Part shown: in pieces, positions 2,610 to 43,666 of the stretch
Layout of the letters: each line of letters begins with the position of its first letter
Numbering within the stretch: the first letter of the stretch is position 1
NCBI GenBank assembly: GCA_038045945.1
Contig: JBBSXC010000003.1
Coordinates: 128,001-192,000 of the forward strand
Length of the DNA stretch: 64,000 bases
From: Nanobdellota archaeon
Lineage (GTDB): Archaea; Nanobdellota; Nanobdellia; Pacearchaeales; GW2011-AR1
Reading direction: 5' to 3'
Notes under the pieces: generated by a model
Database searches by the model: none
What the model saw: only the letters and a program-made list of their open reading frames with translations
Told to the model about the DNA's origin: nothing
Translations under genes and position numbers: made by a program

Positions 2610-4310
2610 GTAGTCGTTATTGTTACCCCTAGCCATCTTCTCAATTATTAATTCTGGTGTTGAACGAGCAAGCCTCCCAATTACAGGATTATGATCGACG
2701 ATTAACTCATTATCAGCTGACAACCCTTTAGCTTCAATACCATCAATACGACTAAAAGGAGGGAGATGATCTTTAATTTCTTGACCAAGATGAGTAGCAA
2801 CTATCATAAAACATCCTTTCTTAATAAAGAATTCTGCAGTAGCACAAATAAGTCTGCTCGCAACTCCTGGTTCAGTAACGGCCTCTATTTCATCAGCAAG
2901 AATTAAAGTTTTATTATTTGATGTCTTAATATCAGACATTTGAGTTAGTAAAGTCTCAAAAGCACCCTTAGTCATACTACCTTTATTCTTAGCAAAATAA
3001 TAAATTTCTGAGAATAACGGAGCCTGGAAACCCCCACGCATAGGAAGACCAAGATTCATTATTGATATTGCTTGAATTAAGTGCTCAATAAGGGTTGTTT
3101 TACCACCAGAATTAGCACCAGTTAGTATTGAGCAACGCGAAGCATTATCCAAATAAAAATTTATCGGTTGAGGCTTCTCTAAGAAAAGGTTTTCTAAATT
3201 ATTAAAATGAATTTTTTCTGAGATAGAAGGATGATGATCATTATTCCTAATCATTTGTTTAATCCCAGAAAAAAAGTCGAATAATAATAACTCTTGCGAA
3301 AGTTGAGACAAAAGACTTGGAATAGCTCTTAATAATTCGCTGTGGAGCTTAACCTTTTCAGCAATACTTGTAAACTCATCAGAATCCTGACTTTTAACAA
3401 ACCTTTCAAATTCCGAATCATCTAAACGTACAGGAATACTAACTTTTAACAAGTGAGTAGGTATACCAGAATTAGAAATTTCTGACTCAATAATATCTAA
3501 TACTTCCTTAGGAATCTTGCCTTGAGAAAGCATTGAAAAAACTGATGCTCCTGAAAGATTCATAAGTTCAAGCCGCATAGAAATACCTTCATTAATCCTC
3601 TCTAAAGCAGAATCAACATCATTTAAGGATATTTTCTTAACAACATCAGATTTAAGTAACTGGAGAGCTGGGGAAAGTTTAGAAACAATATTAAGAATTC
3701 TTTCATTAATAATTCCAGAACTATTAATAACATCAATATTAGCAGACCATGAGGACAAAAGTTCCAAATACCTTTCTAAGTATGCGTCATCACTAGAGGA
3801 CAAAAATACGCTTTGGGGAAGACGTTCTAAAGAAGAACTAAAATTATCACAATCAACAACTTGCACTAAATCATAACTTTCAAGACTCATCAAATCATTA
3901 TCAGTTAACAATAATTGTGCAGGACAATCAGCCTTAGTAAGATTAAGATAAGTCTTCTCATCCTCAGTAGCCACTACAACACCATACTTGGGCTTCCACC
4001 AAGACTTTGGCTTCTTTAAAGACTTTAAAAAAGAATTATTATTAACATCCTTAGATAAAGAAAGGTGGAAAAATTCTTGCCTCCTAAGAATCTCCTTAGG
4101 ATCATCAGTTAAGGGGAAAGCATGCCATAAATCATCAGTTGATGGAAGAACAAATTTTTCGCTAACAGCCCTAATAGTTCTTTGGTGAACTAACTTTGCA
4201 TCTTTAGTTATGAACAAATTCTTTGATTCAGGCTTTATTACAGTTCCCGCCGCTTTATCAAAAGGAGTAATTTTGTTATCAATAATAATCTTAGTCAACT
4301 CTTTAATCAT
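2577..4310 (-). CDS. MutS-family (domain V ATPase) protein, archaeal MutS2/MutS5-like
   Basis: LTGANSGGKTT Walker A, GAFET, LILADEIEAVTEPG, VATHLG; likely start MIKELTK at 4310. Confidence 0.85.
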   Translation of the reverse strand: MIKELTKIIIDNKITPFDKAAGTVIKPESKNLFITKDAKLVHQRTIRAVSEKFVLPSTDDLWHAFPLTDDPKEILRRQEFFHLSLSKDVNNNSFLKSLKKPKSWWKPKYGVVVATEDEKTYLNLTKADCPAQLLLTDNDLMSLESYDLVQVVDCDNFSSSLERLPQSVFLSSSDDAYLERYLELLSSWSANIDVINSSGIINERILNIVSKLSPALQLLKSDVVKKISLNDVDSALERINEGISMRLELMNLSGASVFSMLSQGKIPKEVLDIIESEISNSGIPTHLLKVSIPVRLDDSEFERFVKSQDSDEFTSIAEKVKLHSELLRAIPSLLSQLSQELLLFDFFSGIKQMIRNNDHHPSISEKIHFNNLENLFLEKPQPINFYLDNASRCSILTGANSGGKTTLIEHLIQAISIMNLGLPMRGGFQAPLFSEIYYFAKNKGSMTKGAFETLLTQMSDIKTSNNKTLILADEIEAVTEPGVASRLICATAEFFIKKGCFMIVATHLGQEIKDHLPPFSRIDGIEAKGLSADNELIVDHNPVIGRLARSTPELIIEKMARGNNNDYLRFLGEKIKS

Positions 4311-4705: not shown

Positions 4706-6082
4706 TTATACTTCTTTACTTCTTTCTAACAAATCAATAGGGTAAACCCCATCAAAACACGATAAACTAAGCTTTTCTCTTGGTAAACCAACACCTTTTA
4801 CTAATCCTTCAATTGATAAATAATTAAGACTCGTAGCACCCAAAAACTGCCTTATTTCCTCAACACTTTTAGAAGAAGCAACTAATTGATCTTTTTTAGG
4901 AGTATCAATACCATAAAAGTCAGGAAAACGAACAGGAGGTGAAGAAACTAAGAAGTGTACTTCAACAGCACCAGCATCAAACAACGCCTTAACTATCTGA
5001 GCTGAAGTAGTACCCCTAACAATTGAGTCATCAACAACAGCAACTCTCTTACCCTTAATAATAGAAGTTAAAGGATTAAGTTTAAGCTTAACCCCCAACT
5101 GCCTAGAACGAGAATCAGGCTCAATAAATGTTCTGTGAATATAACGATTCTTAACAAGAGCCATTTCTAAAGGAATACCACTAATAGCAGAATAACCAAC
5201 AGCCACAGGAATAGCAGTTTCAGGCACAGGAATAATAATATCAACGTTTAAAGGGCTCTCAACAGCTAATATTTCACCAAACTTCCTACGAACATCATAA
5301 ACAGGCCTGCCAAGAATTATACTATCAGGCCTAGAAAAATAAACGAATTCGAAAACATCAAACTTTTGGTCAGGATCAGCAAGTTGAACGCAGCGCACAC
5401 CACTAGAATTAATAATAATCATTTCACCAGGCCTAACCTCACGAATAAATTCTGCACCGATAGTGTTAAAGGCACAAGTTTCAGAAGCAACAACATATCC
5501 ACCATCAATCTTACCAAGAGCTAAAGGCCTAATACCGCAATGATCCTTAAAAGCAACAAGAGTATCCTTAGACATAGCAACAACTGAGAAAGCACCAGTA
5601 AACAAAGGATAAGCCTCCATAACAGCCTCACCAATACTACGACCCTGCTCCATAAAATAACCAACAGCATCAGTCATCATCTGCGAATCATTCCTGCTAG
5701 AAACATCAATATCTTTACTTGACAAAAAACTTTGCAAAGCCATAACAGAAGGAAGATTACCATTATGAGACAAAGCAAGTCTCCCATCACGAGAAATAAT
5801 AGGAGAAGCATGATTAATACCAGTACCACCAAAAGTCGAGTAACGATTATGACCAACAGAAATATGACCTTTAAGAGAAGAAATATCACTTTCAGAATAA
5901 GCCTGAGTTACCAGGCCAACATTTTTGAAACAATCAATTTTCCAACCGTTGGATACAGCAATACCGCTAGACTCCTGACCCCTATGCTGTAAAGCAAAAA
6001 GACCATAAAAAGAGAGTCTGCTAACGTCTAAACCCTTACCAAAAATACCAATAACACCACACTTTTCATTAAGTTCATCCAT
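4706..6082 (-). CDS. purF: amidophosphoribosyltransferase
   Basis: propeptide + CGVIG, LQHRGQESSG, GHNRYST, HNGNL, VVDDSIVRGTT; start MDELNEKC at 6082. Confidence 0.96.
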   Translation of the reverse strand: MDELNEKCGVIGIFGKGLDVSRLSFYGLFALQHRGQESSGIAVSNGWKIDCFKNVGLVTQAYSESDISSLKGHISVGHNRYSTFGGTGINHASPIISRDGRLALSHNGNLPSVMALQSFLSSKDIDVSSRNDSQMMTDAVGYFMEQGRSIGEAVMEAYPLFTGAFSVVAMSKDTLVAFKDHCGIRPLALGKIDGGYVVASETCAFNTIGAEFIREVRPGEMIIINSSGVRCVQLADPDQKFDVFEFVYFSRPDSIILGRPVYDVRRKFGEILAVESPLNVDIIIPVPETAIPVAVGYSAISGIPLEMALVKNRYIHRTFIEPDSRSRQLGVKLKLNPLTSIIKGKRVAVVDDSIVRGTTSAQIVKALFDAGAVEVHFLVSSPPVRFPDFYGIDTPKKDQLVASSKSVEEIRQFLGATSLNYLSIEGLVKGVGLPREKLSLSCFDGVYPIDLLERSKEV

Positions 6083-6180
6083 AAAAATCACCCTTGAAAA
6101 AATATCAACATTACAGTATTTAAGGATTATAGTGATTAAGCCATAATAAGACTTATTAACACACAAAAATTAGCAAGGTA

Positions 6181-6423
6181 ATGGGTGAAGTAATAAGATC
6201 AACAAAGTTTATGGCGGACATAATAAACACAGGAACAATAAAGAATTATCAACAAGAAAAACCATTTCTGCCAGAAAAAGATGAATTTCTAGAAAGAAAC
6301 ATTACATTAGGAAATGAAGAACTAATAGAAAAGAAAAAAAGAGACAGAAGAAACGCATTAGCAGTAGCATTGATAGTAGTATTATCAATAATCATAGTAA
6401 TGTTCGGATTATTCACAGCATAA
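6181..6423 (+). CDS. small protein with C-terminal TM anchor
   Basis: 80-aa ORF ending in basic patch + hydrophobic helix. Confidence 0.6.
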   Translation: MGEVIRSTKFMADIINTGTIKNYQQEKPFLPEKDEFLERNITLGNEELIEKKKRDRRNALAVALIVVLSIIIVMFGLFTA

Positions 6424-6434
6424 AAAAATTTCTT

Positions 6435-7172
6435 TTAGTGAGAATGAGCATGAGATCTACTCCTCAAACCCACAGAAGCACTCTTATAACGAGAAGAAAC
6501 AACATTATTAAGTAAAGCAATAGCAACAGAGCGATCAGAAGAAGAACTTGAAGAATCACAACTAATAAATAATGCTTCATCACCAGAAGGAATTTTAAGA
6601 TAAGAAGGAGAAACCCTACCATTAGGACCAACCTCACCCTTAAACATAGCAGTTAAGTAATAAGGACCATCCTGACAATAAAAATCAGATAATAACCTAA
6701 CACCACTAGGCTTAGCAACAGCATTAACCAAAGCATTAGACTCAAAATCAGAACTCTTCTTATCAAAAGAAACAGGAAAAGAGTAGGATAAAGACCTAAC
6801 CTTTCCCAAATTTTCATTCCAAGTAATACCATTAGCATCAGGATGACAACCACTAAGAAAAAAATCACAAGTATTCTGACAAATAGAAAGTTTACCATCA
6901 GCATCAGTTTCAGGACTATCCCAAACGTAAACCTTATCAGGAGTCCAAAGAACACCAGTGTTAGAAAGAAAACGGTGATGAGTCATAGAAAGAAGTGCCG
7001 AAGCACCACTAGAATGAGACTCTTCACAAAGAGCAAGAACTTCCACAAGACCAGAAAAATCAACCATTCTAAGACCATCCTTATAGATTTCACTTCTAAA
7101 ATGGTCAAAACTATCATGACCGTGATAAACCCTAAAACGAGCCTTACTAACCTCGCACTCATAACTATCCAT
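6435..7172 (-). CDS. hypothetical protein
   Basis: 245-aa ORF with the T-ending codon pattern of other minus-strand genes. Confidence 0.65.
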   Translation of the reverse strand: MDSYECEVSKARFRVYHGHDSFDHFRSEIYKDGLRMVDFSGLVEVLALCEESHSSGASALLSMTHHRFLSNTGVLWTPDKVYVWDSPETDADGKLSICQNTCDFFLSGCHPDANGITWNENLGKVRSLSYSFPVSFDKKSSDFESNALVNAVAKPSGVRLLSDFYCQDGPYYLTAMFKGEVGPNGRVSPSYLKIPSGDEALFISCDSSSSSSDRSVAIALLNNVVSSRYKSASVGLRSRSHAHSH

Positions 7173-7280
7173 AAAAAGTTTATATTTTATCCCTATATAA
7201 AACTAACAAAAACATATAATTGTATCTGCACAGTAGTAACAAATAGCAAGCTTTATATAGGCTCAAACCCTTGTCCGAGC

Positions 7281-7823
7281 ATGGATGAACACCATACAAA
7301 CACTGATGAAAAGGAGTGGAGAGAATATGCCAATAGAGAATTTGCAGATGAGAACGGGAAATTCTCAATACATAAACTTTTATTAAGTTTTGCTAAAGAA
7401 GACCAAGCAGTTTTAGATGTAACTAGAAGACTAGATGAGCTAACTGCACAAGTCGAGCAACACCCAAAATGTAAGAGGCCATATGAGGACTTATGGAGAC
7501 TTGTTACAGACAATGCTCATAGAATGACAGATAAAGAAGAAGTAAAAGGAGATTTAGGAAGAGTCGTTAGAGGAAGATTTGGAACAAGCTATAGAACATC
7601 AATAGAAAGTGGGAGAGTCTTAGTACCAAGTTTTATGCCAATAATCTCCCTAGGAATGTCTAATATAGTCCAAATTGAAAAGGGAGTTAGACCAGTAAAG
7701 GACACTTATAGAGGAGTAATCATAAGGAGAATTACTTCAGGATTAGCAAAAGGAAAATTAGAAGGAATGCCATTCTACTATCAAGACTCTAAACTAGTAG
7801 AAGAACCAGGTTACTCAGACTAA
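7281..7823 (+). CDS. hypothetical protein
   Basis: start MDEHH at 7281 lies about 25 nt after GCTTTATATA; the longer 6843 start is a shadow over 6435..7172. Confidence 0.65.
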   Translation: MDEHHTNTDEKEWREYANREFADENGKFSIHKLLLSFAKEDQAVLDVTRRLDELTAQVEQHPKCKRPYEDLWRLVTDNAHRMTDKEEVKGDLGRVVRGRFGTSYRTSIESGRVLVPSFMPIISLGMSNIVQIEKGVRPVKDTYRGVIIRRITSGLAKGKLEGMPFYYQDSKLVEEPGYSD

Positions 7824-7843
7824 GATTCTTATCAAAATACAAA

Positions 7844-8218
7844 ATGCCAAATAAAGATAAAAACGGCAATGAGAAAAGAAGATTATTTTTTAGAGCAAAT
7901 AAGAATTTTGATGCAGGACTTAAAGAAGTTTTAGCCAAAAGATCAGACTCAGAAGATGATGCTAAAATAATAATTCTTACTAGAAAACTAGAAGGAGAAA
8001 AATCTAGAAAAATTCTTTATGATTTAGGAATATCCCACAGCTTAAGGGGATTAAATGGAGACTACGAAAAGGCAAAAACTTACCTTAATAGAGCTTTAGA
8101 GTTAGAAGAAAGTGAAAAGGACAAGGAAGAAGGATTAAGCGACATGGAGATATATGGAGGATTAAGAATGATAGTAACCCTTGAAGAGCAAAGAAAGGCG
8201 AAAGGAGCAAAACAATAA
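7844..8218 (+). CDS. TPR-like helical protein
   Basis: LYDLG...GDYEKAKTYLNRALEL TPR-like pattern. Confidence 0.55.
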   Translation: MPNKDKNGNEKRRLFFRANKNFDAGLKEVLAKRSDSEDDAKIIILTRKLEGEKSRKILYDLGISHSLRGLNGDYEKAKTYLNRALELEESEKDKEEGLSDMEIYGGLRMIVTLEEQRKAKGAKQ

Positions 8219-14451: not shown

Positions 14452-15465
14452 ATGAATAAAATATCATTTTACGGATTTGGAGCGTTCAACAGTGCACTAG
14501 CACACTACTTTGACAAAGAAAAAAACTTCTCGATGAGTTGTTACGATAAAGACGAGAAAGTAAAAGAATCAATAGACAAAGAAAGAAGACACCCACACCA
14601 CTTCACAAATATGACTTATAGTAAAAAATTATCAGTAACAAATGACCTAAAAGAATTATTATTAGCCGCAGAATTCTTAATAATTGGACTACCAACACAA
14701 ATAATCAGAGAAAACCTAAAACCAATAAAAGACCTCCTAAACAAAGAAACAACAATAATCATAGTATCAAAGGGACTCGAAATAGGAACTAACAAAAGAA
14801 TTAGCGAAATAGTAAAAGAAGAATTAGGACACAGAAAAATAGCCGTTTTTGCTGGAGGAACAGTAGCATCAGACATAGCTAACAGAATACCACTAATAGC
14901 AGAAGTAGCAAGCGAGGATAAAGAAACAAGAGAAAAAGTAGCAGGACTATTCCACAGCGAATCATTAAGAATATACACTAACCCAGACGTAGTATCAGTA
15001 GAACTATCAAGCGCACTAAAAAACATAGTATCAATAGGAGCAGGAATTTGTGACGGTTTAGGATTCACTATAGGAACTAAAGCATCATTCATAACACGAG
15101 CAACCAGAGACATATACAAAATAGCCAAGGCAATGGGGGCACATGACAAAACATTCCTGCCAGGAAGCGCATCAGTGTGGGGAGACATAATACTATCGGC
15201 ATTCGGACCAACAAGAAACTACGAATTCGGAAAAAGACTATGCTCAAAAAACCCAAAAGAGGTATTAGAATTGATGAATAAAGAACACAAAACAATTGAA
15301 GGATACTGGACAGTTAAAGCAGTAAGAACAATGAGCAAAGAAAAAGGAATAGACACACCATGTATAGAACAAGTATACAAAATAGTACACGAAGAAGTAA
15401 AACCGTTAGTTGCACTAAAAGAATTATTCGAAAGAAAAAGAACAAGCATAGACTCAAACGATTAA
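14452..15465 (+). CDS. gpsA: NAD(P)H-dependent glycerol-3-phosphate dehydrogenase
   Basis: GFGAF Rossmann, VSKGLE, ALKNIVSIGAGICDGL, GDIILS, TRNYEFG, IEG. Confidence 0.9.
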   Translation: MNKISFYGFGAFNSALAHYFDKEKNFSMSCYDKDEKVKESIDKERRHPHHFTNMTYSKKLSVTNDLKELLLAAEFLIIGLPTQIIRENLKPIKDLLNKETTIIIVSKGLEIGTNKRISEIVKEELGHRKIAVFAGGTVASDIANRIPLIAEVASEDKETREKVAGLFHSESLRIYTNPDVVSVELSSALKNIVSIGAGICDGLGFTIGTKASFITRATRDIYKIAKAMGAHDKTFLPGSASVWGDIILSAFGPTRNYEFGKRLCSKNPKEVLELMNKEHKTIEGYWTVKAVRTMSKEKGIDTPCIEQVYKIVHEEVKPLVALKELFERKRTSIDSND

Positions 15466-25105: not shown

Positions 25106-25600
25106 ATGGAGAATATACAAGTATCCGTATCAAGACAAGACTTCGAAGGAGATAAAATACCAATATGGTACAAAGGAGACTTAATTGAAGGAGCAATAAG
25201 CATAACCCCAGAACAATCATACAGCAAAACAAACAATAAAGGAAAAAATTTTACTAAAGAAGGAAAAGCAACATACCAAATAAGAGGATTGTTAAAATAC
25301 AAAGCCAACAACTGTTTCGTTATAGACTTCGGAGTATTAGGAGTAAGCACAAGCCCCATACCAGAACAAATAAGCCCGCAAATAAGTGTAGGAGAACACA
25401 TAAACGGAAAGTTCAGATTATCAATAAGTTGTTTAATGGAAAAAATGGAAAGGTTAGGAAGAGAATCATCACAAAAACTAATACAAAAATTTAGAATAGA
25501 AAAAATATATTCTCCAACAGGAGCAGAAATAAACGAAATAAAGGGCGGAATGCAAGGCGCGAGCGGAATAATAATAGAATTAAACGCACTAAAGTTCTAG
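25106..25600 (+). CDS. hypothetical protein
   Basis: 164-aa ORF. Confidence 0.6.
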   Translation: MENIQVSVSRQDFEGDKIPIWYKGDLIEGAISITPEQSYSKTNNKGKNFTKEGKATYQIRGLLKYKANNCFVIDFGVLGVSTSPIPEQISPQISVGEHINGKFRLSISCLMEKMERLGRESSQKLIQKFRIEKIYSPTGAEINEIKGGMQGASGIIIELNALKF

Positions 25601-25629
25601 GTGTCTACACTTTCAAAAACGTAGACACC
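25598..25629. repeat. inverted pair of GGTGTCTAC boxes downstream of fic
   Basis: TAGGTGTCTACAC(25598-25610)...GTAGACACC(25621-25629). Confidence 0.8.
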
Positions 25630-25670
25630 CAACAAACATCGACGGATAAATTAATTCTCTGAGAAAAAAA

Positions 25671-25727
25671 TTATTTTTTGAATTTCTTCCTTAAAGTACG
25701 ATACTCTTTAATAAACATCTAAAAAGA
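25671..25727 (-). pseudogene. remnant 3' end of a second Fic allele / mini-ORF MFIKEYRTLRKKFKK
   Basis: in frame directly after the fic stop; encodes the same KEYRTLRKKFKK* with 7 of 13 codons synonymously changed. Confidence 0.75.
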
Positions 25728-26669
25728 CTACTTTTTAAATTTCTTTCTAAGGGTTCTATACTCTTTAAGAATTAATTCAATAGTAGGCCTAATATTACCA
25801 GTGTTTTGGAATTCTCGTAAAGTCTTATAATACTTTTTTCTACTATCAAAAGAAATATTCACAGGAGGAAGATGATGCTTAAGCAAAATATTATTAAGAA
25901 TAAGCCTACCAACCCTACCATTACCATCCTCAAAAGGGTGAATATACTCAAACTGGTTATGAACAACAGCAGCTAAAACAATACCAGGAAGCTTACGCTT
26001 ATTCTTATCATACCAAGTAACAAGCTCAGAAAGAAGAGAAGAAACCCTACTTGATGGAGCACCAAGGTGAATAATATTACCTAAACCATCACGAATACCA
26101 ACCTCAACACCCTTATTCCTAAACTTACCAGCAAAAGCCTTAGAGTTCTCAAAAACAGTTTTGTGCAAATCAAGCATCAACTTTAAAGATAAATGAACTT
26201 TCGTCTTACGAATATACCTAATAGCCTTAGCAACACCATAAGTTTCAGAAATTTCTCCCTTAGGCTTAGTAATAGGCCACTTATTACGACCTAAAATACC
26301 AACAACTTCACTCTGAGTAACAGTTGAACCCTCAATAGCGTTAGTATGATAAGCAAAAATTTCTGTGAAAGCATTCCATTCACTATCAGAAAGATGAAAA
26401 ATCTTAAACTTAGACTTATCCTTTAACAACTTAACAAGATCTAACTCTCGCTTAGTAAAACGATAATTAATAGGACTTCTAATAATTTTAAAACTATTAA
26501 GTTGTTGTATAAGCAAAGTTTTGGCTTTCTCAACACGACCATCAAGAATTTTCTTCTTAAGATTAACACCAATGTAAACTCTAGTCTTCTTAACCTTCCC
26601 ACCCTCACGAAAAGAGTGAGAAAGATAATACTTCAGCCCATGAACAGTTTTACGCTTTTCAAGATACAT
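25728..26669 (-). CDS. Fic-family protein (class II) with N-terminal beta-sheet DNA-binding-like domain
   Basis: HPFEDGNGRVGR catalytic motif; TNAIEG inhibitory motif; N-term KYYLSHSFREGGKVKKTRVYIG. Confidence 0.93.
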   Translation of the reverse strand: MYLEKRKTVHGLKYYLSHSFREGGKVKKTRVYIGVNLKKKILDGRVEKAKTLLIQQLNSFKIIRSPINYRFTKRELDLVKLLKDKSKFKIFHLSDSEWNAFTEIFAYHTNAIEGSTVTQSEVVGILGRNKWPITKPKGEISETYGVAKAIRYIRKTKVHLSLKLMLDLHKTVFENSKAFAGKFRNKGVEVGIRDGLGNIIHLGAPSSRVSSLLSELVTWYDKNKRKLPGIVLAAVVHNQFEYIHPFEDGNGRVGRLILNNILLKHHLPPVNISFDSRKKYYKTLREFQNTGNIRPTIELILKEYRTLRKKFKK

Positions 26670-26719
26670 TAGTGCTTTAACCTCTTATTATAATACATTA
26701 CTACTTGCATATAAATATA

Positions 26720-26763
26720 TAGGTGTCTACATATTTAAATATGTCTACAAAAGGTGTCTACAC
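26720..26763. repeat. three direct (GG)TGTCTACA boxes upstream of the fic promoter
   Basis: TAGGTGTCTACA 26720-26731, TGTCTACA 26742-26749, AGGTGTCTACAC 26752-26763. Confidence 0.8.
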
Positions 26764-26833
26764 AGGGCTACAAGTAAAAAGGTATGCTTTTAGTAAGCGA
26801 TTTGTTTAAATATTAAATTATTCTTGCTTTATT

Positions 26834-27262
26834 ATGGTAGAATCACTTGTCGAAATACTTAACTATCAATCACCTACTTACACTCAAACTTTTGATAGAG
26901 AGGTTGAAGCAGATGAAGGACACAGGTTTTTTTATAATAATGACCCTAAAGATAAAATTTGCGAATGGCTAAAAAATAATTCTTTATGCACCATCCCTCA
27001 AGCAGTACCAGGAGAAGTACCAACTCACACCGGATACTTAATTAATGGTCAAGATGGTTCTTCATGCATTGTTAGAATGAAATTTTACGATTTTTCTGAT
27101 AAGTCTAATGAAGAAAGAAAAGCAATGGTGCCAGAAGGAAGTAGAGACAGACCTTACAAAGTTAGACTGACTATTCGCTCACAACCAGCAAATAGAAGCA
27201 TGCCCAGAGAATTAAGGATTATTCTTAGCCAAATGAATTACGAAAAAATAAAAGAATTATAA
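26834..27262 (+). CDS. hypothetical protein
   Basis: 142-aa ORF with TTTAAATA upstream. Confidence 0.6.
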   Translation: MVESLVEILNYQSPTYTQTFDREVEADEGHRFFYNNDPKDKICEWLKNNSLCTIPQAVPGEVPTHTGYLINGQDGSSCIVRMKFYDFSDKSNEERKAMVPEGSRDRPYKVRLTIRSQPANRSMPRELRIILSQMNYEKIKEL

Positions 27263-27326: not shown

Positions 27327-27399
27327 GCCTTCGTAGCTCAATGGTTAGAGCGATTGCTTCGTAAGCAATAGGTTGAGGGTTCAATTCCCTTCGAAGGCT
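27327..27399 (+). tRNA. tRNA-Thr(CGT)
   Basis: acceptor GCCTTCG/CGAAGGC, anticodon arm ATTGC-TTCGTAA-GCAAT, TTCAATT T-loop, U73, no CCA. Confidence 0.95.
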
Positions 27400-27447: not shown

Positions 27448-27519
27448 GCCTCAGTAGCTCAGTAGTAGAGCACGAGTTTAGTAAACTCGGGGTCGGGGGT
27501 TCAATTCCCTCCTGAGGCT
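27448..27519 (+). tRNA. tRNA-Thr(AGT)
   Basis: acceptor GCCTCAG/CTGAGGC, anticodon arm CGAGT-TTAGTAA-ACTCG, T-arm GGGGG-TTCAATT-CCCTC, U73; D-loop AGTAGTA lacks one conserved G. Confidence 0.88.
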
Positions 27520-42124: not shown

Positions 42125-43666
42125 ATGGGAATAAAGATTAATGATTTAGAAATGGATTTAAGTCCGGCAGTACCAGCACTAAAAATGATGAGTGATAAAA
42201 CTCAAGTAGACATAAGGTACCCTTTAATATCACCATTCGCATACGCGCACATATACTGGAATGAAGAACAAGGAGAATTACTATACGAATTAGAAGAACC
42301 AGTAATCACAGAACAAGAAAAAATAATACTAGAAGAATTAGAAGAAGCAATGAGAGACATAATAAACGTTGATGTAGTACACGAAAGAGACTTACAATCA
42401 CTAGTAGAATACACAGACAAAACAGCAAGACTACTAATATCAGAACTAAGCATATCACTAGACGAAGAAACATACAACAAACTATTCTACTACTTATTTC
42501 GAGACTTCGTAGGACTAAACGAAATAGAAGCAATAATGAAAGACTACTTCATAGAAGACATAGAATGTAACGGAGTAGACGCACCAATATACATAGTTCA
42601 CAGAATATACAGAAACATAAAAACAAATATTGTTTACAAAGATATTGAACAATTAGCAAGCTTCGTAGAAAAACTAGCACAAAAAGGCGGAAGGTACATA
42701 TCATACGCAAACCCATTACTAGACGCAACACTACCAGACGGAAGTAGAGTTAACGCAACATACACAAAAGACATAACAAGCAGAGGACCAACATTCACAA
42801 TAAGAAAATTCACAAAGATACCATGGACACCAATAAAACTATTATCATTCAACACGTTAAGCCCTGAGATGTTAGCATACTTTTGGATACTAGTACAACA
42901 CAGAGCAAACATACTAATAAGCGGGGGAACAGGAACAGGAAAAACAACCCTACTAAACGCAATAGCATTCTTCATACCACCAGAAGCAAGAGTAGTATCA
43001 ATTGAAGACACAAGAGAATTACAATTATCTAGAGAAAACTGGTTACCAACAGTGGCTAGAAGCGCATTATCAACAGGGCAAAGCGTTGGAGAAGTGGATA
43101 TGTTCTCACTGCTAAAAAACTCTTTCAGACAAAACCCCGATTACGTAATAGTTGGAGAAGTAAGAGGAAAAGAAGCTTCCGTTTTATTCCAAGGAATGGC
43201 ATCAGGCCACGCCAGTATGAGCACAATACACGCAGATAGCGTGCAAGGAGTAATAAGAAGACTTGAAACACCACCAATAGAATTATCACCAAGCCTTCTA
43301 GAAACATTAGACGCAGTAGTAATAATGAGTCATACTGTAGTAAACAAAAAAGAAACAAGACGCCTAAGAGAAGTCGTAGAAATAGTTGAAATAAACGATC
43401 ATGGAGAAGCAAAAGTAAACACACCATTCGTATGGAACCCTATAGGAGACACATTCTTCTTCAAAAAAGAAAGCGTAGTACTAAAAAAAATAGCTTACAA
43501 GTATGGAATAACATACGAAGAATTACAAAAAGAGTTCATGCTGAGAACAAGACTAATATACTCACTATACAAAAAAGGAGTTAACGACTTTGAAGAAATA
43601 CAAAGGATAATCCTAGACTACTACAAAGACCCTAATTCTGTGCTAAAAAAATACGGAGTAATATAA
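42125..43666 (+). CDS. type IV pilus assembly ATPase (FlaI/TadA/VirB11 family)
   Basis: IEDIECNG, LPDGSRVNA, FTIRKF, GGTGTGKTT, RQNPDYVIVGEVRG, GHASMSTIHA. Confidence 0.95.
   Translation: MGIKINDLEMDLSPAVPALKMMSDKTQVDIRYPLISPFAYAHIYWNEEQGELLYELEEPVITEQEKIILEELEEAMRDIINVDVVHERDLQSLVEYTDKTARLLISELSISLDEETYNKLFYYLFRDFVGLNEIEAIMKDYFIEDIECNGVDAPIYIVHRIYRNIKTNIVYKDIEQLASFVEKLAQKGGRYISYANPLLDATLPDGSRVNATYTKDITSRGPTFTIRKFTKIPWTPIKLLSFNTLSPEMLAYFWILVQHRANILISGGTGTGKTTLLNAIAFFIPPEARVVSIEDTRELQLSRENWLPTVARSALSTGQSVGEVDMFSLLKNSFRQNPDYVIVGEVRGKEASVLFQGMASGHASMSTIHADSVQGVIRRLETPPIELSPSLLETLDAVVIMSHTVVNKKETRRLREVVEIVEINDHGEAKVNTPFVWNPIGDTFFFKKESVVLKKIAYKYGITYEELQKEFMLRTRLIYSLYKKGVNDFEEIQRIILDYYKDPNSVLKKYGVI

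Follow-up and report, generated by a model that had tools for sequence, protein, structure and literature searches.

Paired sequence boxes at both ends of an archaeal fic gene family suggest a self-regulated Fic module

We found that a fic gene of a Nanobdellota archaeon lies between two clusters of short sequence boxes in a 64-kb stretch of DNA (the whole of which we analysed and refer to as the window), and that the genes of its relatives carry the same layout built from boxes of their own. The boxes are selectively conserved cis elements, fixed in position with respect to the TATA element, the ATG and the stop codon, and linked only to this gene family. We infer that they are bound by the N-terminal domain of the Fic protein itself, and we favor, with moderate confidence, the reading of the unit as a one-gene Fic module under its own control, whose potentially toxic product would repress its own promoter through this binding. 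The features of the window locus are listed below.

25600-25608, plus strand: downstream box D1, GGTGTCTAC
25621-25629, minus strand: downstream box D2, GGTGTCTAC, inverted relative to D1, 21 nt from D1 start to start
25664-25679, both strands: two opposed tracts of oligo-T, T7 at 25664-25670 (fic strand) and T6 at 25674-25679 (plus strand), read directly
25671-25718, minus strand: relic of a second fic 3' end, MFIKEYRTLRKKFKK followed by a stop, in the fic reading frame and 9 nt beyond its stop codon
25728-26669, minus strand: fic coding sequence, 313 aa (ORF plus Pfam Fic)
25905-25940, minus strand: Fic motif HPFEDGNGRVGR, aa 244-255, read directly
26328-26345, minus strand: inhibitory motif TNAIEG, aa 109-114, read directly
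26490-26669, minus strand: N-terminal beta3-alpha domain, aa 1 to about 60, from the modelled structure
26680-26686, minus strand: Shine-Dalgarno-like AAGAGGT, 10 nt before the ATG, read directly
26709-26721, minus strand: TATATATTTATAT, alternative TATA candidate adjoining box U1
26722-26730, plus strand: gene-proximal upstream box U1, GGTGTCTAC (GTAGACACC on the fic strand), starting 61 nt before the ATG
26729-26744, no strand: perfect 16-bp palindrome ACATATTTAAATATGT containing TTTAAATA
26741-26748, plus strand: upstream box U2, ATGTCTAC, a one-mismatch box, (A)TGTCTAC, with a 7-nt copy
26753-26761, plus strand: distal upstream box U3, GGTGTCTAC, 31 nt from U1 start to start

In class II Fic proteins, an inhibitory helix with the motif (S/T)xxxE(G/N) precedes the core on one and the same chain, and by its sequence the window protein is an autoinhibited, class II-type Fic AMP-transferase. 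The Pfam Fic/Fido domain (PF02661) scored 70.3 bits against a cut-off of 24 over residues 160-262. TNAIEG is placed at the end of a modelled helix (95-112), before the Fic core, and T109, N110, A111, E113 and G114 were invariant among 30 aligned homologs. The catalytic motif, given as HxFx(D/E)GN(G/K)R in the available part of the source (PMC2686095), is present at aa 244-255, with H, P, F, E, D, G and N of aa 244-250 invariant in 30/30 aligned homologs. Residues 106-302 had FICD as their best PDB match both by sequence (E 1e-28) and by fold (Foldseek E 3e-10), which bears out the class II assignment of the first-pass annotation; FICD differs in its TPR N-terminus and membrane anchor. The PADLOC SoFic model matched residues 106-303 (E 5.9e-32) over model positions 61-259 of 361 only. 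We rejected a SoFic-type Fic, as there was no full-length match with the C-terminal winged helix (the window Fic ends about 58 aa beyond the Fic motif) and NCBIfam NF046030 scored 44.7 bits against a cut-off of 550. A class I FicT/FicA or a Doc/Phd pair was likewise rejected: no adjacent antitoxin is conserved, no ORF besides fic was common to any two of 10 loci, and Pfam detected no antitoxin among 47 neighbouring ORFs. The homolog family comprised 3117 matches at E <= 0.001, and those with a named source were labelled Pacearchaeota, Nanoarchaeota or "archaeon".

Around the window gene, the 9-mer GGTGTCTAC occurs in exactly four copies in 64 kb, each flanking fic. D1 begins on the final base of the TAG that closes the convergent ORF at 25106-25600, and the 8-mer cores of D1 and D2 are 20 nt apart. 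The three upstream direct repeats and the downstream inverted pair reported in the first-pass annotation were recovered at every coordinate, as was the identical 12-mer said to bound the unit (AGGTGTCTACAC, exact at 25599-25610 and 26752-26763 and one base off at 26721-26732). The 8-mer GTGTCTAC occurred four times on the two strands of the window, against an expectation of 1.0 from shuffles (1/100 shuffles reached four), and all four copies fall inside the two fic clusters. With one mismatch allowed, the 9-mer gained a single extra site elsewhere in the window, at 14585, and was not over-represented (5 observed against 6.75 expected). The motif had earlier been noticed nowhere else in the window; this held for the exact 8-mer and 9-mer and failed for the 7-mer TGTCTAC, of whose eight copies five lie in the clusters and three elsewhere (25000, 28004 and 42206). 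Since the 7-mer total was not above chance (eight were reached in 32/100 shuffles), the signal resides in the clustering, not in the count. When only the promoter-side boxes were used, the 171-nt stop region contained two matches (p = 0.0011 relative to the remainder of the window), and a clustering test without boxes chosen by eye gave p = 0.005 for the window gene. At about 43415-43452 there is a further pair with a spacing of 30 nt; each of its boxes has one mismatch, the pair lies inside a coding region, and we judged it to be chance.

The 31-nt spacing of U1 and U3 is that found in the homologs and, by position, TTTAAATA within the palindrome would be the equivalent of the TATA box flanked by pairs elsewhere. 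The TATA box had previously been placed downstream of all three boxes, at TATATATTTATAT; judged from the other loci, TTTAAATA between the boxes is at least as likely. With two TATA candidates and a proximal box 61 nt from the ATG rather than about 20, the geometry of repression is less clear here than in the homologs. The Shine-Dalgarno-like sequence implies that the window fic mRNA is probably leadered, unlike the apparently leaderless homologs. At the other end of the gene, archaeal RNA polymerase terminates at oligo-T, and the opposed T7 and T6 tracts accordingly resemble terminators of the two convergent genes; the downstream boxes sit beyond the fic-strand T7. The relic and the real fic 3' end differ by six synonymous codon changes over 12 shared residues plus TAG/TAA (nine base changes), and additionally by two amino-acid changes. 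Read-through of the TAG into the relic by a genome-wide code change was ruled out, as TAG ends 9/57 large ORFs.

We compared 11 genes encoding the N-terminal domain, namely the window gene and ten others in nine loci from several archaeal phyla. The contig scan for relatives gave at least 600 stretches, at least 598 of them confirmed, of which 80 were taken, and all relatives returned were at most 52% identical; the proteins of the nine loci were 27-52% identical, in a family that also has homologs of 65-86% identity. The exact window motif GTGTCTAC was absent from 11/11 distant loci scanned. We therefore searched for lineage-specific boxes and observed that each of the nine loci has its own 8-10 nt box. 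The first-pass annotation had counted absence of the motif from homologous fic genes against its own reading; the exact motif was indeed missing, while lineage-specific boxes stood at the same positions, and the association of boxes with this fic family is upheld by promoter pairs that are kept and by stop-region pairs in nine of the ten testable genes.

By eye, all 11 genes have two boxes around an AT-rich TATA-like element no more than 100 nt upstream of the ATG, and the spacing of the promoter pair, just before the ATG, ranges from 23 to 35 nt across loci. A scan with curated 8-mer boxes placed the pair at about -50 and -20 in 8/10 genes and at -92/-61 in the window; the two boxes were 29-35 nt apart start to start in 9/10 genes, window included. 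One gene, L051a, had a single curated-box match at -70, and a different box, TGCCCCCTAA, was read there twice by eye; L051b, outside the curated-box scan, has a pair 23 nt apart. Promoter boxes are repeated in direct orientation in the window and L001 and inverted in most loci. Box sequence differs between protein subgroups, and the consensus frame of the nearest subgroup, GTRnnCACC, is near-palindromic.

A second pair was present at or after the stop codon in most genes: boxes derived from the promoter had two or more further copies within the 171-nt stop region of 9/10 testable genes (Fisher combined p = 8e-16), the miss being L051a. A test without hand-picked boxes found the same nine genes significant (each p <= 0.009, combined 1.2e-15; L051a p = 0.27), and the same test on 45 neighboring control genes gave 0/45 at p <= 0.01 and 1/45 at p <= 0.05. 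In 7/9 genes the two downstream boxes are as far apart as the upstream ones, 29-35 nt start to start, and in the window and L001 they are 20-21 nt apart. The loci are partly non-independent, as they include the close pairs L010/L015 and L002/L003. L010 and L015 share 85.6% of protein, 78.7% of coding DNA and just 53.7% of third codon positions, against about 47/49 identical positions in their promoter modules, and their alignable DNA runs from the distal promoter box to the outer downstream box. Between L002 and L003 (71% protein identity), the boxes were kept and the spacers had diverged.

To what these boxes might bind, the N-terminus of the protein offers a candidate. It was modelled as a three-stranded sheet plus a helix (AlphaFold2, pLDDT 89.8), in keeping with the three strands proposed earlier, and varies hardly at all across 30 close homologs, in which the basic residues R21, K28 and R30 are conserved. 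The proposed kinship with IS1634 transposases and SSV1-type integrases found no support in searches of limited sensitivity. Pfam returned zero matches for eight N-termini at E up to 10, and the domain has no Pfam family; no protein of 549-2000 aa shared it (weak evidence); tblastn found no match in plasmids, and in phages the Fic part alone matched, from query residue 101 onward. A profile search of 1.84 billion proteins returned, among the 150 matches listed, four proteins longer than 500 aa, none of them a transposase by Pfam. The fold search gave no significant match for the domain (best E 0.24 in PDB and 0.028 in BFVD), and in the ESM Atlas residues 1-62 reached a best score of 0.87, to archaeal clusters, below the level that counts. 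A resemblance to arm-type/AP2 folds was sub-threshold (E 0.14-1.2, TM 0.42-0.49 across PDB and BFVD) and agrees in topology: the P4-like integrase arm-binding domains (3rmp, 3jtz, 3ju0) and the phage AP2/ERF fold likewise have a helix after three antiparallel strands. These matches are not significant (PDB E 0.39-1.2, TM 0.42-0.48; BFVD AP2 E 0.14), no sequence similarity was found, and dsRBD-like and Pur-alpha folds score about as well. The same N-terminal domain is also fused to a PEP-utilising enzyme, an acetate kinase, a NuoE-like ferredoxin, a methyltransferase and a nucleotidyltransferase; its fusion to such unrelated enzymes means that it may serve another purpose than box binding.

Fic is the sole gene common to any two of the 10 loci, and Pfam detected no shared regulator among the 47 neighboring ORFs within 2.5 kb of fic (8 loci); the nearest constant candidate for a box binder is therefore the Fic protein. 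We reasoned that its first ~60 residues would form a sequence-specific DNA-binding domain recognising boxes of 8-9 bp (GTAGACACC in the window), two of which bracket the TATA element of the fic promoter at a distance of about three helical turns from each other. The bound protein, probably as an oligomer, would hinder TBP, TFB or RNA polymerase and so keep fic expression low. The second pair, past the gene end, would be a further docking site for the Fic protein; from there it could either work together with the promoter pair, the ~1.1-kb gene between them being looped out, or block transcription that is convergent or reads through. As the boxes are direct in the window and L001 and inverted in most loci, one protein fits them all only if each box is a near-palindrome.

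The closest bacterial parallel is CccR of Yersinia pseudotuberculosis, a Fic protein with a C-terminal HTH, which, in the available part of the source, represses its own promoter via AGATAATCAT-N26-ATGATAATCT (PMC9755527). As described there, CccR also has a class II-type Fic with an inhibitory S/TxxxEG (SARIEG in CccR) and a DNA-binding part on the same chain (in the archaeal protein a predicted one), and its two inverted boxes (10-N26-10) lie over the core promoter, as the two 8-10 nt boxes of the archaeal modules, 23-35 nt apart start to start, lie around the TATA element. This kind of layout, two boxes with a long spacer at the gene's own core promoter, was seen by eye in 11/11 genes. The systems differ in that CccR binds through its HTH at a -35/-10 promoter, whereas here the predicted binder is an N-terminal beta3-alpha domain without a family and the promoter is an archaeal TATA promoter. 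CccR is, moreover, a secreted T6SS effector, and nothing of that kind is suggested here; the available part of its source mentions no second operator at the cccR 3' end (PMC9755527).

SoFic of Shewanella oneidensis, again from the available parts of the sources, is a class II enzyme that binds its own promoter DNA (bioRxiv 10.64898/2026.07.09.737422) and an anti-phage defence gene (PMC12249575) whose target is EF-Tu. The window Fic domain fits the PADLOC SoFic model, and the C-terminal winged helix of SoFic is absent from it. We saw no counterpart of AS1, the small downstream antitoxin of SoFic, in the fic flanks as read; to assign that role to the 15-codon relic ORF would be pure speculation. 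Fic-HTH fusions had been proposed as autoregulators in 2009, according to the accessible portion of PMC2686095.

For CbFic2, the accessible text describes DNA binding that alters the oligomeric state and switches AMPylation to deAMPylation (PMC10628234); it differs in having a C-terminal HTH and no known sequence-specific operator at its own gene. This switch is a possible model for the effect of box docking on the window enzyme. On its pattern, we tentatively raise the idea, which we think has only a small chance of being correct, that Fic is parked as an inactive or de-AMPylating oligomer on both operator modules with a loop of ~1.1 kb, so that the flanking DNA would restrain the toxin, and the AMPylase would be released when the DNA is disturbed by a virus, a nuclease or replication stress: a one-gene toxin with a "DNA antitoxin".

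Next to the self-regulated module, we weighed the boxes as operators of a separate trans-acting regulator, with the Fic N-terminal domain serving in protein or RNA binding or in oligomerisation. This is unlikely. It would suit a domain that has no significant match to a known DNA-binding fold and is fused to several unrelated enzymes, and box binding by that domain is something that we infer. Such a regulator would, however, need to co-vary and travel with fic across several phyla, and no flank gene is shared by the 10 loci; moreover, the exact 9-mer occurs at fic only within the 64-kb window, so that there is no sign of a wider regulon there.

Somewhat less likely still is a mobile cassette, in which the box modules would be the ends of a fic element without a recombinase of its own, moved in trans or exchanged by recombination, with ends recognised by the N-terminal domain or by a foreign transposase or integrase. 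Several observations fit it. The gene context differs at every locus, even at 85.6% protein identity. The identical 12-mer stands at both ends of the window unit, the outer boxes of L010 and L015 are terminal inverted repeats, perfect over 13 bp (GTATGTGCACAAT/ATTGTGCACATAC), and the downstream modules of L002 and L004 are best read, by eye, as inverted copies of the upstream ones. Signs of gene turnover include the relic 3' end in the window, with its mostly synonymous differences, a foreign-type box pair without a gene of its own directly after the L008 gene, as well as the Fic fragment of L003. At three of nine loci scanned (the window and eight others), namely the window, L004 and L008, tRNA genes were located no more than about 1 kb from fic (ARAGORN with introns allowed plus Rfam, default ARAGORN having missed intron-bearing tRNAs), a proximity that is suggestive only.

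Against the cassette, Pfam-searched neighbors held no integrase or transposase, either among the 47 ORFs (8 loci) or among eight neighbor ORFs of the window, and no target-site duplication was seen by eye beside the outer boxes of four loci (L002, L004, L010 and L015). Module orientation is inconsistent, being direct in L005 and at the window outer boxes, and the inverted ends are perfect in L010 and L015 only. The sharp homology boundaries of that pair were dropped as a sign of mobility: at third codon positions the two genes agree in only 53.7%, close to saturation for synonymous sites, so that constraint explains the boundaries. The promoter pair, fixed around the TATA element and the ATG, speaks for regulation, and the N-terminal domain showed no link to transposases in the sequence searches above. 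Some IS elements have a transposase promoter within a terminal inverted repeat, and the fic unit resembles them in having predicted protein-binding repeats at both ends of one gene with the promoter inside one of them; it differs in having no transposase domain, no target duplication seen and no consistent repeat orientation. An insertion sequence or transposon was thus rejected, as a recombinase gene, consistent terminal inverted repeats and a target-site duplication were not found. The first-pass annotation had left the choice between a self-regulated or looped module and a recombinase-less cassette moved in trans; promoter geometry favors the former, and the latter gained no positive support from the flanks.

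We regard it as very improbable that the repeats act as RNA or single-strand hairpins, whether in terminating or stabilising a transcript or as subterminal hairpins of the IS200/IS605 type. The downstream pair of the window can fold as a hairpin of 9-10 bp (DNA, -8 kcal/mol, z -4.4 and -4.8), and most homolog pairs are inverted repeats; however, the upstream boxes of the window, as direct repeats, gave no fold (z about -1.1 to -1.3), and the loops would be 12-25 nt. Further, the promoter pairs stand on either side of the TATA element, from which position they probably lie upstream of the transcription start and would therefore be absent from the mRNA, and in the window the downstream boxes come after the T7 tract, at which the fic transcript probably ends. 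That a short word clustered by chance in an AT-rich genome agrees with the unexceptional 7-mer and one-mismatch 9-mer counts, but is refuted for practical purposes by the confinement of 4/4 exact 8-mers to two short clusters at one gene and by a layout that recurs with different boxes in 9/10 genes and 0/45 control genes.

Overall, a self-repressing Fic is already known in bacteria from CccR and SoFic, both with a C-terminal HTH and neither known to have a further operator at the 3' end, as far as the available parts of their sources go. Here, a large archaeal family displays the cis side of this autoregulatory logic with a different, unclassified N-terminal domain, and adds a feature that we did not find described, an operator copy at the stop codon by which the gene is bracketed; no paper on Fic proteins of these archaea was among the literature matches listed. 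The family thus provides a candidate for an archaeal gene with an operator pair at each end, a directly testable combination of site pair and putative DNA-binding domain from organisms that cannot be cultured, and a lead on a domain that is fused also to metabolic enzymes in these reduced genomes. If the reading of the flanking DNA as antitoxin were true, the beta3-alpha domain would be a new archaeal DNA-binding module that makes enzymes (acetate kinase, the PEP-utilising enzyme and others) self-regulating "trigger enzymes", and the bracketed unit could also be what genomes exchange.

We examined the fic region of the window on both strands and observed short repeats (boxes) at both ends of the gene for a Fic (AMP-transferase) protein, read from the sequence as follows:

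25728..26669, minus strand: fic ORF, 313 aa
25600-25608 (plus), 25621-25629 (minus), 26722-26730 (plus) and 26753-26761 (plus): box GGTGTCTAC
26741-26748, plus strand: box ATGTCTAC
25599-25610 and 26752-26763: identical copies of AGGTGTCTACAC

The boxes reported by the first-pass annotation were confirmed at their coordinates. All four copies of the 8-mer GTGTCTAC in the 64-kb window (both strands; 1.0 expected, and four reached in 1 of 100 shuffles) lie inside the two clusters, and allowing one mismatch in the 9-mer adds just one site elsewhere, at 14585. The 7-mer TGTCTAC is not confined to the clusters, with five occurrences in them and three elsewhere. Because this total of eight is not above chance, the evidential weight of the window boxes is their clustering. 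Only the downstream pair, an inverted one, can form a hairpin (z -4.4 and -4.8); upstream, where the boxes repeat in the same direction, no fold was obtained. The downstream pair lies past a T7 tract that comes after fic, and the convergent ORF 25106..25600 has its stop codon overlapping the first box of that pair.

Class II Fic enzymes carry an inhibitory (S/T)xxxE(G/N) motif. The window protein has a Pfam Fic score of 70.3 bits (cut-off 24) and the Fic motif HPFEDGNGRVGR (aa 244-255), and its TNAIEG (aa 109-114) conforms to the class II motif. FICD/HYPE are the best solved relatives (E 1e-28 over residues 106-302; Foldseek E 3e-10). The PADLOC SoFic model matched residues 106-303 (E 5.9e-32), covering just model positions 61-259 of 361, and SoFic's C-terminal winged helix is missing from the window Fic. 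A word-indexed search gave 3117 homologs at E <= 0.001 from 5045 candidates. The best 120 of the 3117 are 65-100% identical and 283-358 aa long; where an entry has a name, it is that of a Fic family protein from Pacearchaeota, Nanoarchaeota or "archaeon". Thirty of these 120, sampled at intervals down the list, were aligned, and residues 1-35 are nearly invariant among them.

The genome-contig matches listed held only distant relatives, including eight loci, from Woesearchaeota, Nanoarchaeia, Micrarchaeota and a Nitrososphaerales MAG, in which the match extends to the N-terminus at 27-52% identity. A local profile search of 80 listed loci plus the window added L015 and a second L051 gene, and found no further carrier of the N-terminal domain (the first ~60 residues) in the window. 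The comparison set was therefore 11 genes in 10 loci, window included, with true start codons set from the conserved N-terminus before the flanks were read. The first-pass annotation had named absence of the motif from homologous flanks as counting against it. Exact GTGTCTAC was found in 0 of 11 loci scanned, and a lone 7-mer, far from the gene, in just two of the 11, which taken at face value would refute it; however, boxes whose sequence varies by lineage occupy the same positions:

L001: GTAGTCACC twice
L002 and L003: GGTGACTAC / GTGGTCACC
L004: GGTGTCCAC / GTGGGCACC
L005: GTGTTGTCCAC / GTGGACAA
L008: ATGGGCAC / GTGCCCAT
L010 and L015: GTATGTGCAC / ATGTGCCC
L051, second gene: ATAACCAC / GTGGTTAT
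L051, first gene: TGCCCCCTAA twice, by eye

One promoter layout recurs in every gene: a box, then about 12 nt, an AT-rich TATA-like element, a second box, 6-11 nt and the ATG. In the relatives, whose genes look leaderless, the proximal box sits after the TATA-like element and before the start codon, and the distal box about three helical turns further up. Counted from start to start, the two boxes are 29-35 nt apart in nine genes, the window's included, and 23-25 nt apart in the two L051 genes. A second pair, mostly at the promoter spacing, straddles or follows the stop codon, its inner box often within the last codons. The window promoter fits this plan, with GTAGACACC at -92 and -61, 31 nt apart, around TTTAAATA; its peculiarities are an additional box at -79 and a longer leader, in which a Shine-Dalgarno-like AAGAGGT occurs.

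We then searched the 171-nt stop region at the 3' end of each gene for boxes read from the promoter only (8-mers, <=1 mismatch, both strands). Of the 10 testable genes, 9 had at least two matches (per-locus p 3.8e-5 to 0.022; Fisher combined p 8e-16); the first L051 gene was the miss, and the second runs off its locus. A second test, free of hand-picked boxes, counted stop-region positions matching any GC-containing promoter 8-mer, with 1000 windows drawn at random from that locus as background. The same nine genes were significant (p 0.001-0.009; L051 p = 0.27; combined p 1.2e-15), with L010/L015 and L002/L003 being related pairs. Among 45 neighbouring control genes, whose start codons are uncurated, none reached p <= 0.01 and one reached p <= 0.05; matching positions numbered 11-19 in the nine fic genes and at least 11 in none of the controls.

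L010 and L015 encode proteins 85.6% identical in wholly different contexts. Their DNA is alignable only between the distal promoter box and the outer box downstream, both included, and the two outer boxes make a perfect inverted repeat of 13 bp. Identity is 78.7% for coding DNA and 53.7% for third positions, while the promoter module is about 47/49 identical, which shows stronger constraint on the promoter module and downstream boxes than on the coding sequence; L002/L003 gave the same footprints. With third positions at 53.7%, neutral flanks would be unalignable anyway, so the limits of the L010/L015 alignment were dropped as a mobile-element edge. As cis elements the boxes are real and functional, and they are specific to one widespread family of archaeal Fic proteins, whose N-terminal domain is unclassified.

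No ORF except fic is common to any two of the ten loci. By Pfam, the 47 neighbour ORFs include housekeeping genes (LeuRS, EF-1alpha, RNase P Rpr2, PGK) and no common regulator, integrase or transposase. The window neighbours are VKOR, purA, a glycosyltransferase, two tRNA-Thr genes and two unassigned ORFs that flank the fic unit:

25106-25600, plus strand: 164 aa, no Pfam or NCBIfam family; sole match a weak PADLOC Csx1 (E 0.007)
26834-27262, plus strand: 142 aa, no Pfam or NCBIfam family

Separately, three of nine loci scanned (window, L004, L008) have tRNA genes at a distance of up to about 1 kb from fic, and L001 has tRNA-like stretches uncalled by ARAGORN and Rfam:

Window 27327-27399 and 27448-27519, plus strand: two tRNA-Thr
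L004 4966-5186, minus strand: intron-bearing tRNA-Asp and tRNA-Tyr, 40 nt past fic
L008 3218-3290, plus strand: tRNA-Cys, ahead of fic

The L003 fic sits amid toxin-antitoxin-like genes (3321-3810 and 5507-7637: ParE-like toxin, Fic-domain fragment, HTH-nucleotidyltransferase, NYN nuclease).

Fic is the sole constant partner of the boxes, and box sequence shifts with Fic protein subgroup, which together point to the N-terminal domain as the probable box binder. AlphaFold2 placed three antiparallel strands in residues 2-35. A helix follows from residue 39, ending at 57 when the whole protein is modelled (pLDDT 77.8, pTM 0.81) and at 64 for the domain alone (ten diverse sequences, pLDDT 89.8). 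Eight N-termini had no Pfam match even at E <= 10, and the domain had no NCBIfam match. Fold searches gave nothing significant in PDB (best E 0.24) or BFVD (best E 0.028). Below threshold, arm-type domains of P4-like integrases (E 0.39-1.2, TM 0.42-0.48) scored about equal to dsRBD and Pur-alpha in PDB, and BFVD offered an AP2/ERF phage protein (E 0.14) and two integrases (E 0.24-0.28). The models and fold searches thus support the predicted three-stranded sheet but no specific kinship. The proposed relation to IS1634 transposases found no backing in Pfam, plasmids, significant fold matches or longer proteins; for the last, the absence of sharers among proteins of 549-2000 aa is weak evidence.

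When 1.84 billion representative proteins were searched by profile, 385 matched at E <= 0.001. Among the 150 listed, only four exceed 500 aa, three with a PEP-utilising domain and one without a Pfam family, which again gives the IS1634 proposal no support, and many short matches are visibly truncated or frameshifted Fic proteins. In the listed matches, the domain also heads unrelated enzymes, namely acetate kinase, PEP-utilising enzymes, NuoE-like 2Fe-2S ferredoxins, a methyltransferase, a nucleotidyltransferase and QueC (P0147, P0209, P0235, P0263, P0218, P0265, P0249, P0268, P0243), and might serve archaeal enzymes more generally as an N-terminal module.

We also observed a relic of fic and a set of Fic paralogs:

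25671-25718, minus strand: relic second copy of fic's final 15 codons, in frame, directly after the real stop
L051 (Micrarchaeota contig), 3382-4293 (plus), 5132-6361 (minus) and 7556-8218 (plus): three Fic paralogs within 5 kb

The relic, 78% identical to the fic 3' end over 51 nt and followed by the T7 tract, also makes up an ORF of 15 codons that has an ATG of its own. Among the 12 residues it shares with fic, KEYRTLRKKFKK, six codons differ, all synonymously, and the stop is TAG versus TAA (TAG is an ordinary stop here, ending 9 of 57 large ORFs), making nine synonymous base changes in total beside two amino-acid changes. Assuming about one quarter of random changes to be synonymous, we estimate a chance near 1e-4 for this ratio under neutral drift; the relic therefore diverged under selection on protein, and would most simply be a remnant of another fic allele after a replacement event. 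Two L051 paralogs have the beta3-alpha N-terminus, each with its own distinct boxes; the third, whose N-terminus is longer and of another kind, matches nothing in Pfam beyond the Fic domain and lacks the promoter/stop box signature in the control-gene test. L008 carries an L002-type pair, GGTGACCAC-N12-GTAGTCACC (4968-4998, 21 nt apart), immediately behind the downstream pair that belongs to its fic gene; the LeuRS start is about 100 nt further on. No matching fic gene lies in the 7-kb locus; the L002-type pair may be what is left of a module, or a target in trans.

A mobile cassette keeps some weight, as gene context differs at every locus, several loci have inverted outer boxes, one 12-mer stands unchanged at both ends of the window's fic unit and traces of replacement exist; however, no recombinase gene was found among the neighbour ORFs and no target duplication seen by eye, repeat orientation is inconsistent, and promoter geometry suggests regulation. 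A separate regulator acting on the boxes is unlikely, with no neighbour gene common to the loci. Hairpin-based roles, for which the window's downstream pair could serve, fail for its non-folding upstream boxes and for promoter pairs lying upstream of the transcript. Chance is excluded by the comparative tests across loci and control genes.

We favor autoregulation by the Fic enzyme itself. In CccR, the counterpart of TNAIEG is SARIEG, the footprint is reported to be AGATAATCAT-N26-ATGATAATCT over the core promoter, and the dimer holds two DNA-binding domains about 70 Å apart (PMC9755527). SoFic is reported to bind the 100-bp stretch just ahead of its own start codon (bioRxiv 10.64898/2026.07.09.737422). 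Because the archaeal promoter pair resembles the two-box footprint of CccR, and SoFic likewise binds its own promoter, the pair would be an autorepression operator. The 3' pair, without counterpart in the available published accounts of CccR and SoFic, might allow cooperative looping of the gene or form a roadblock to convergent and read-through transcription. By analogy with CbFic2, whose activity is reported to be switched by DNA binding (PMC10628234), docking on the boxes might also control catalysis, which is speculation.

The literature matches listed included no paper on Fic proteins of these archaea. Autoregulation by the Fic enzyme is most likely what the boxes serve. This logic is already known from bacterial Fic-HTH proteins; new here are a different domain, archaeal promoters and what would be an unreported second operator at the end of the gene.
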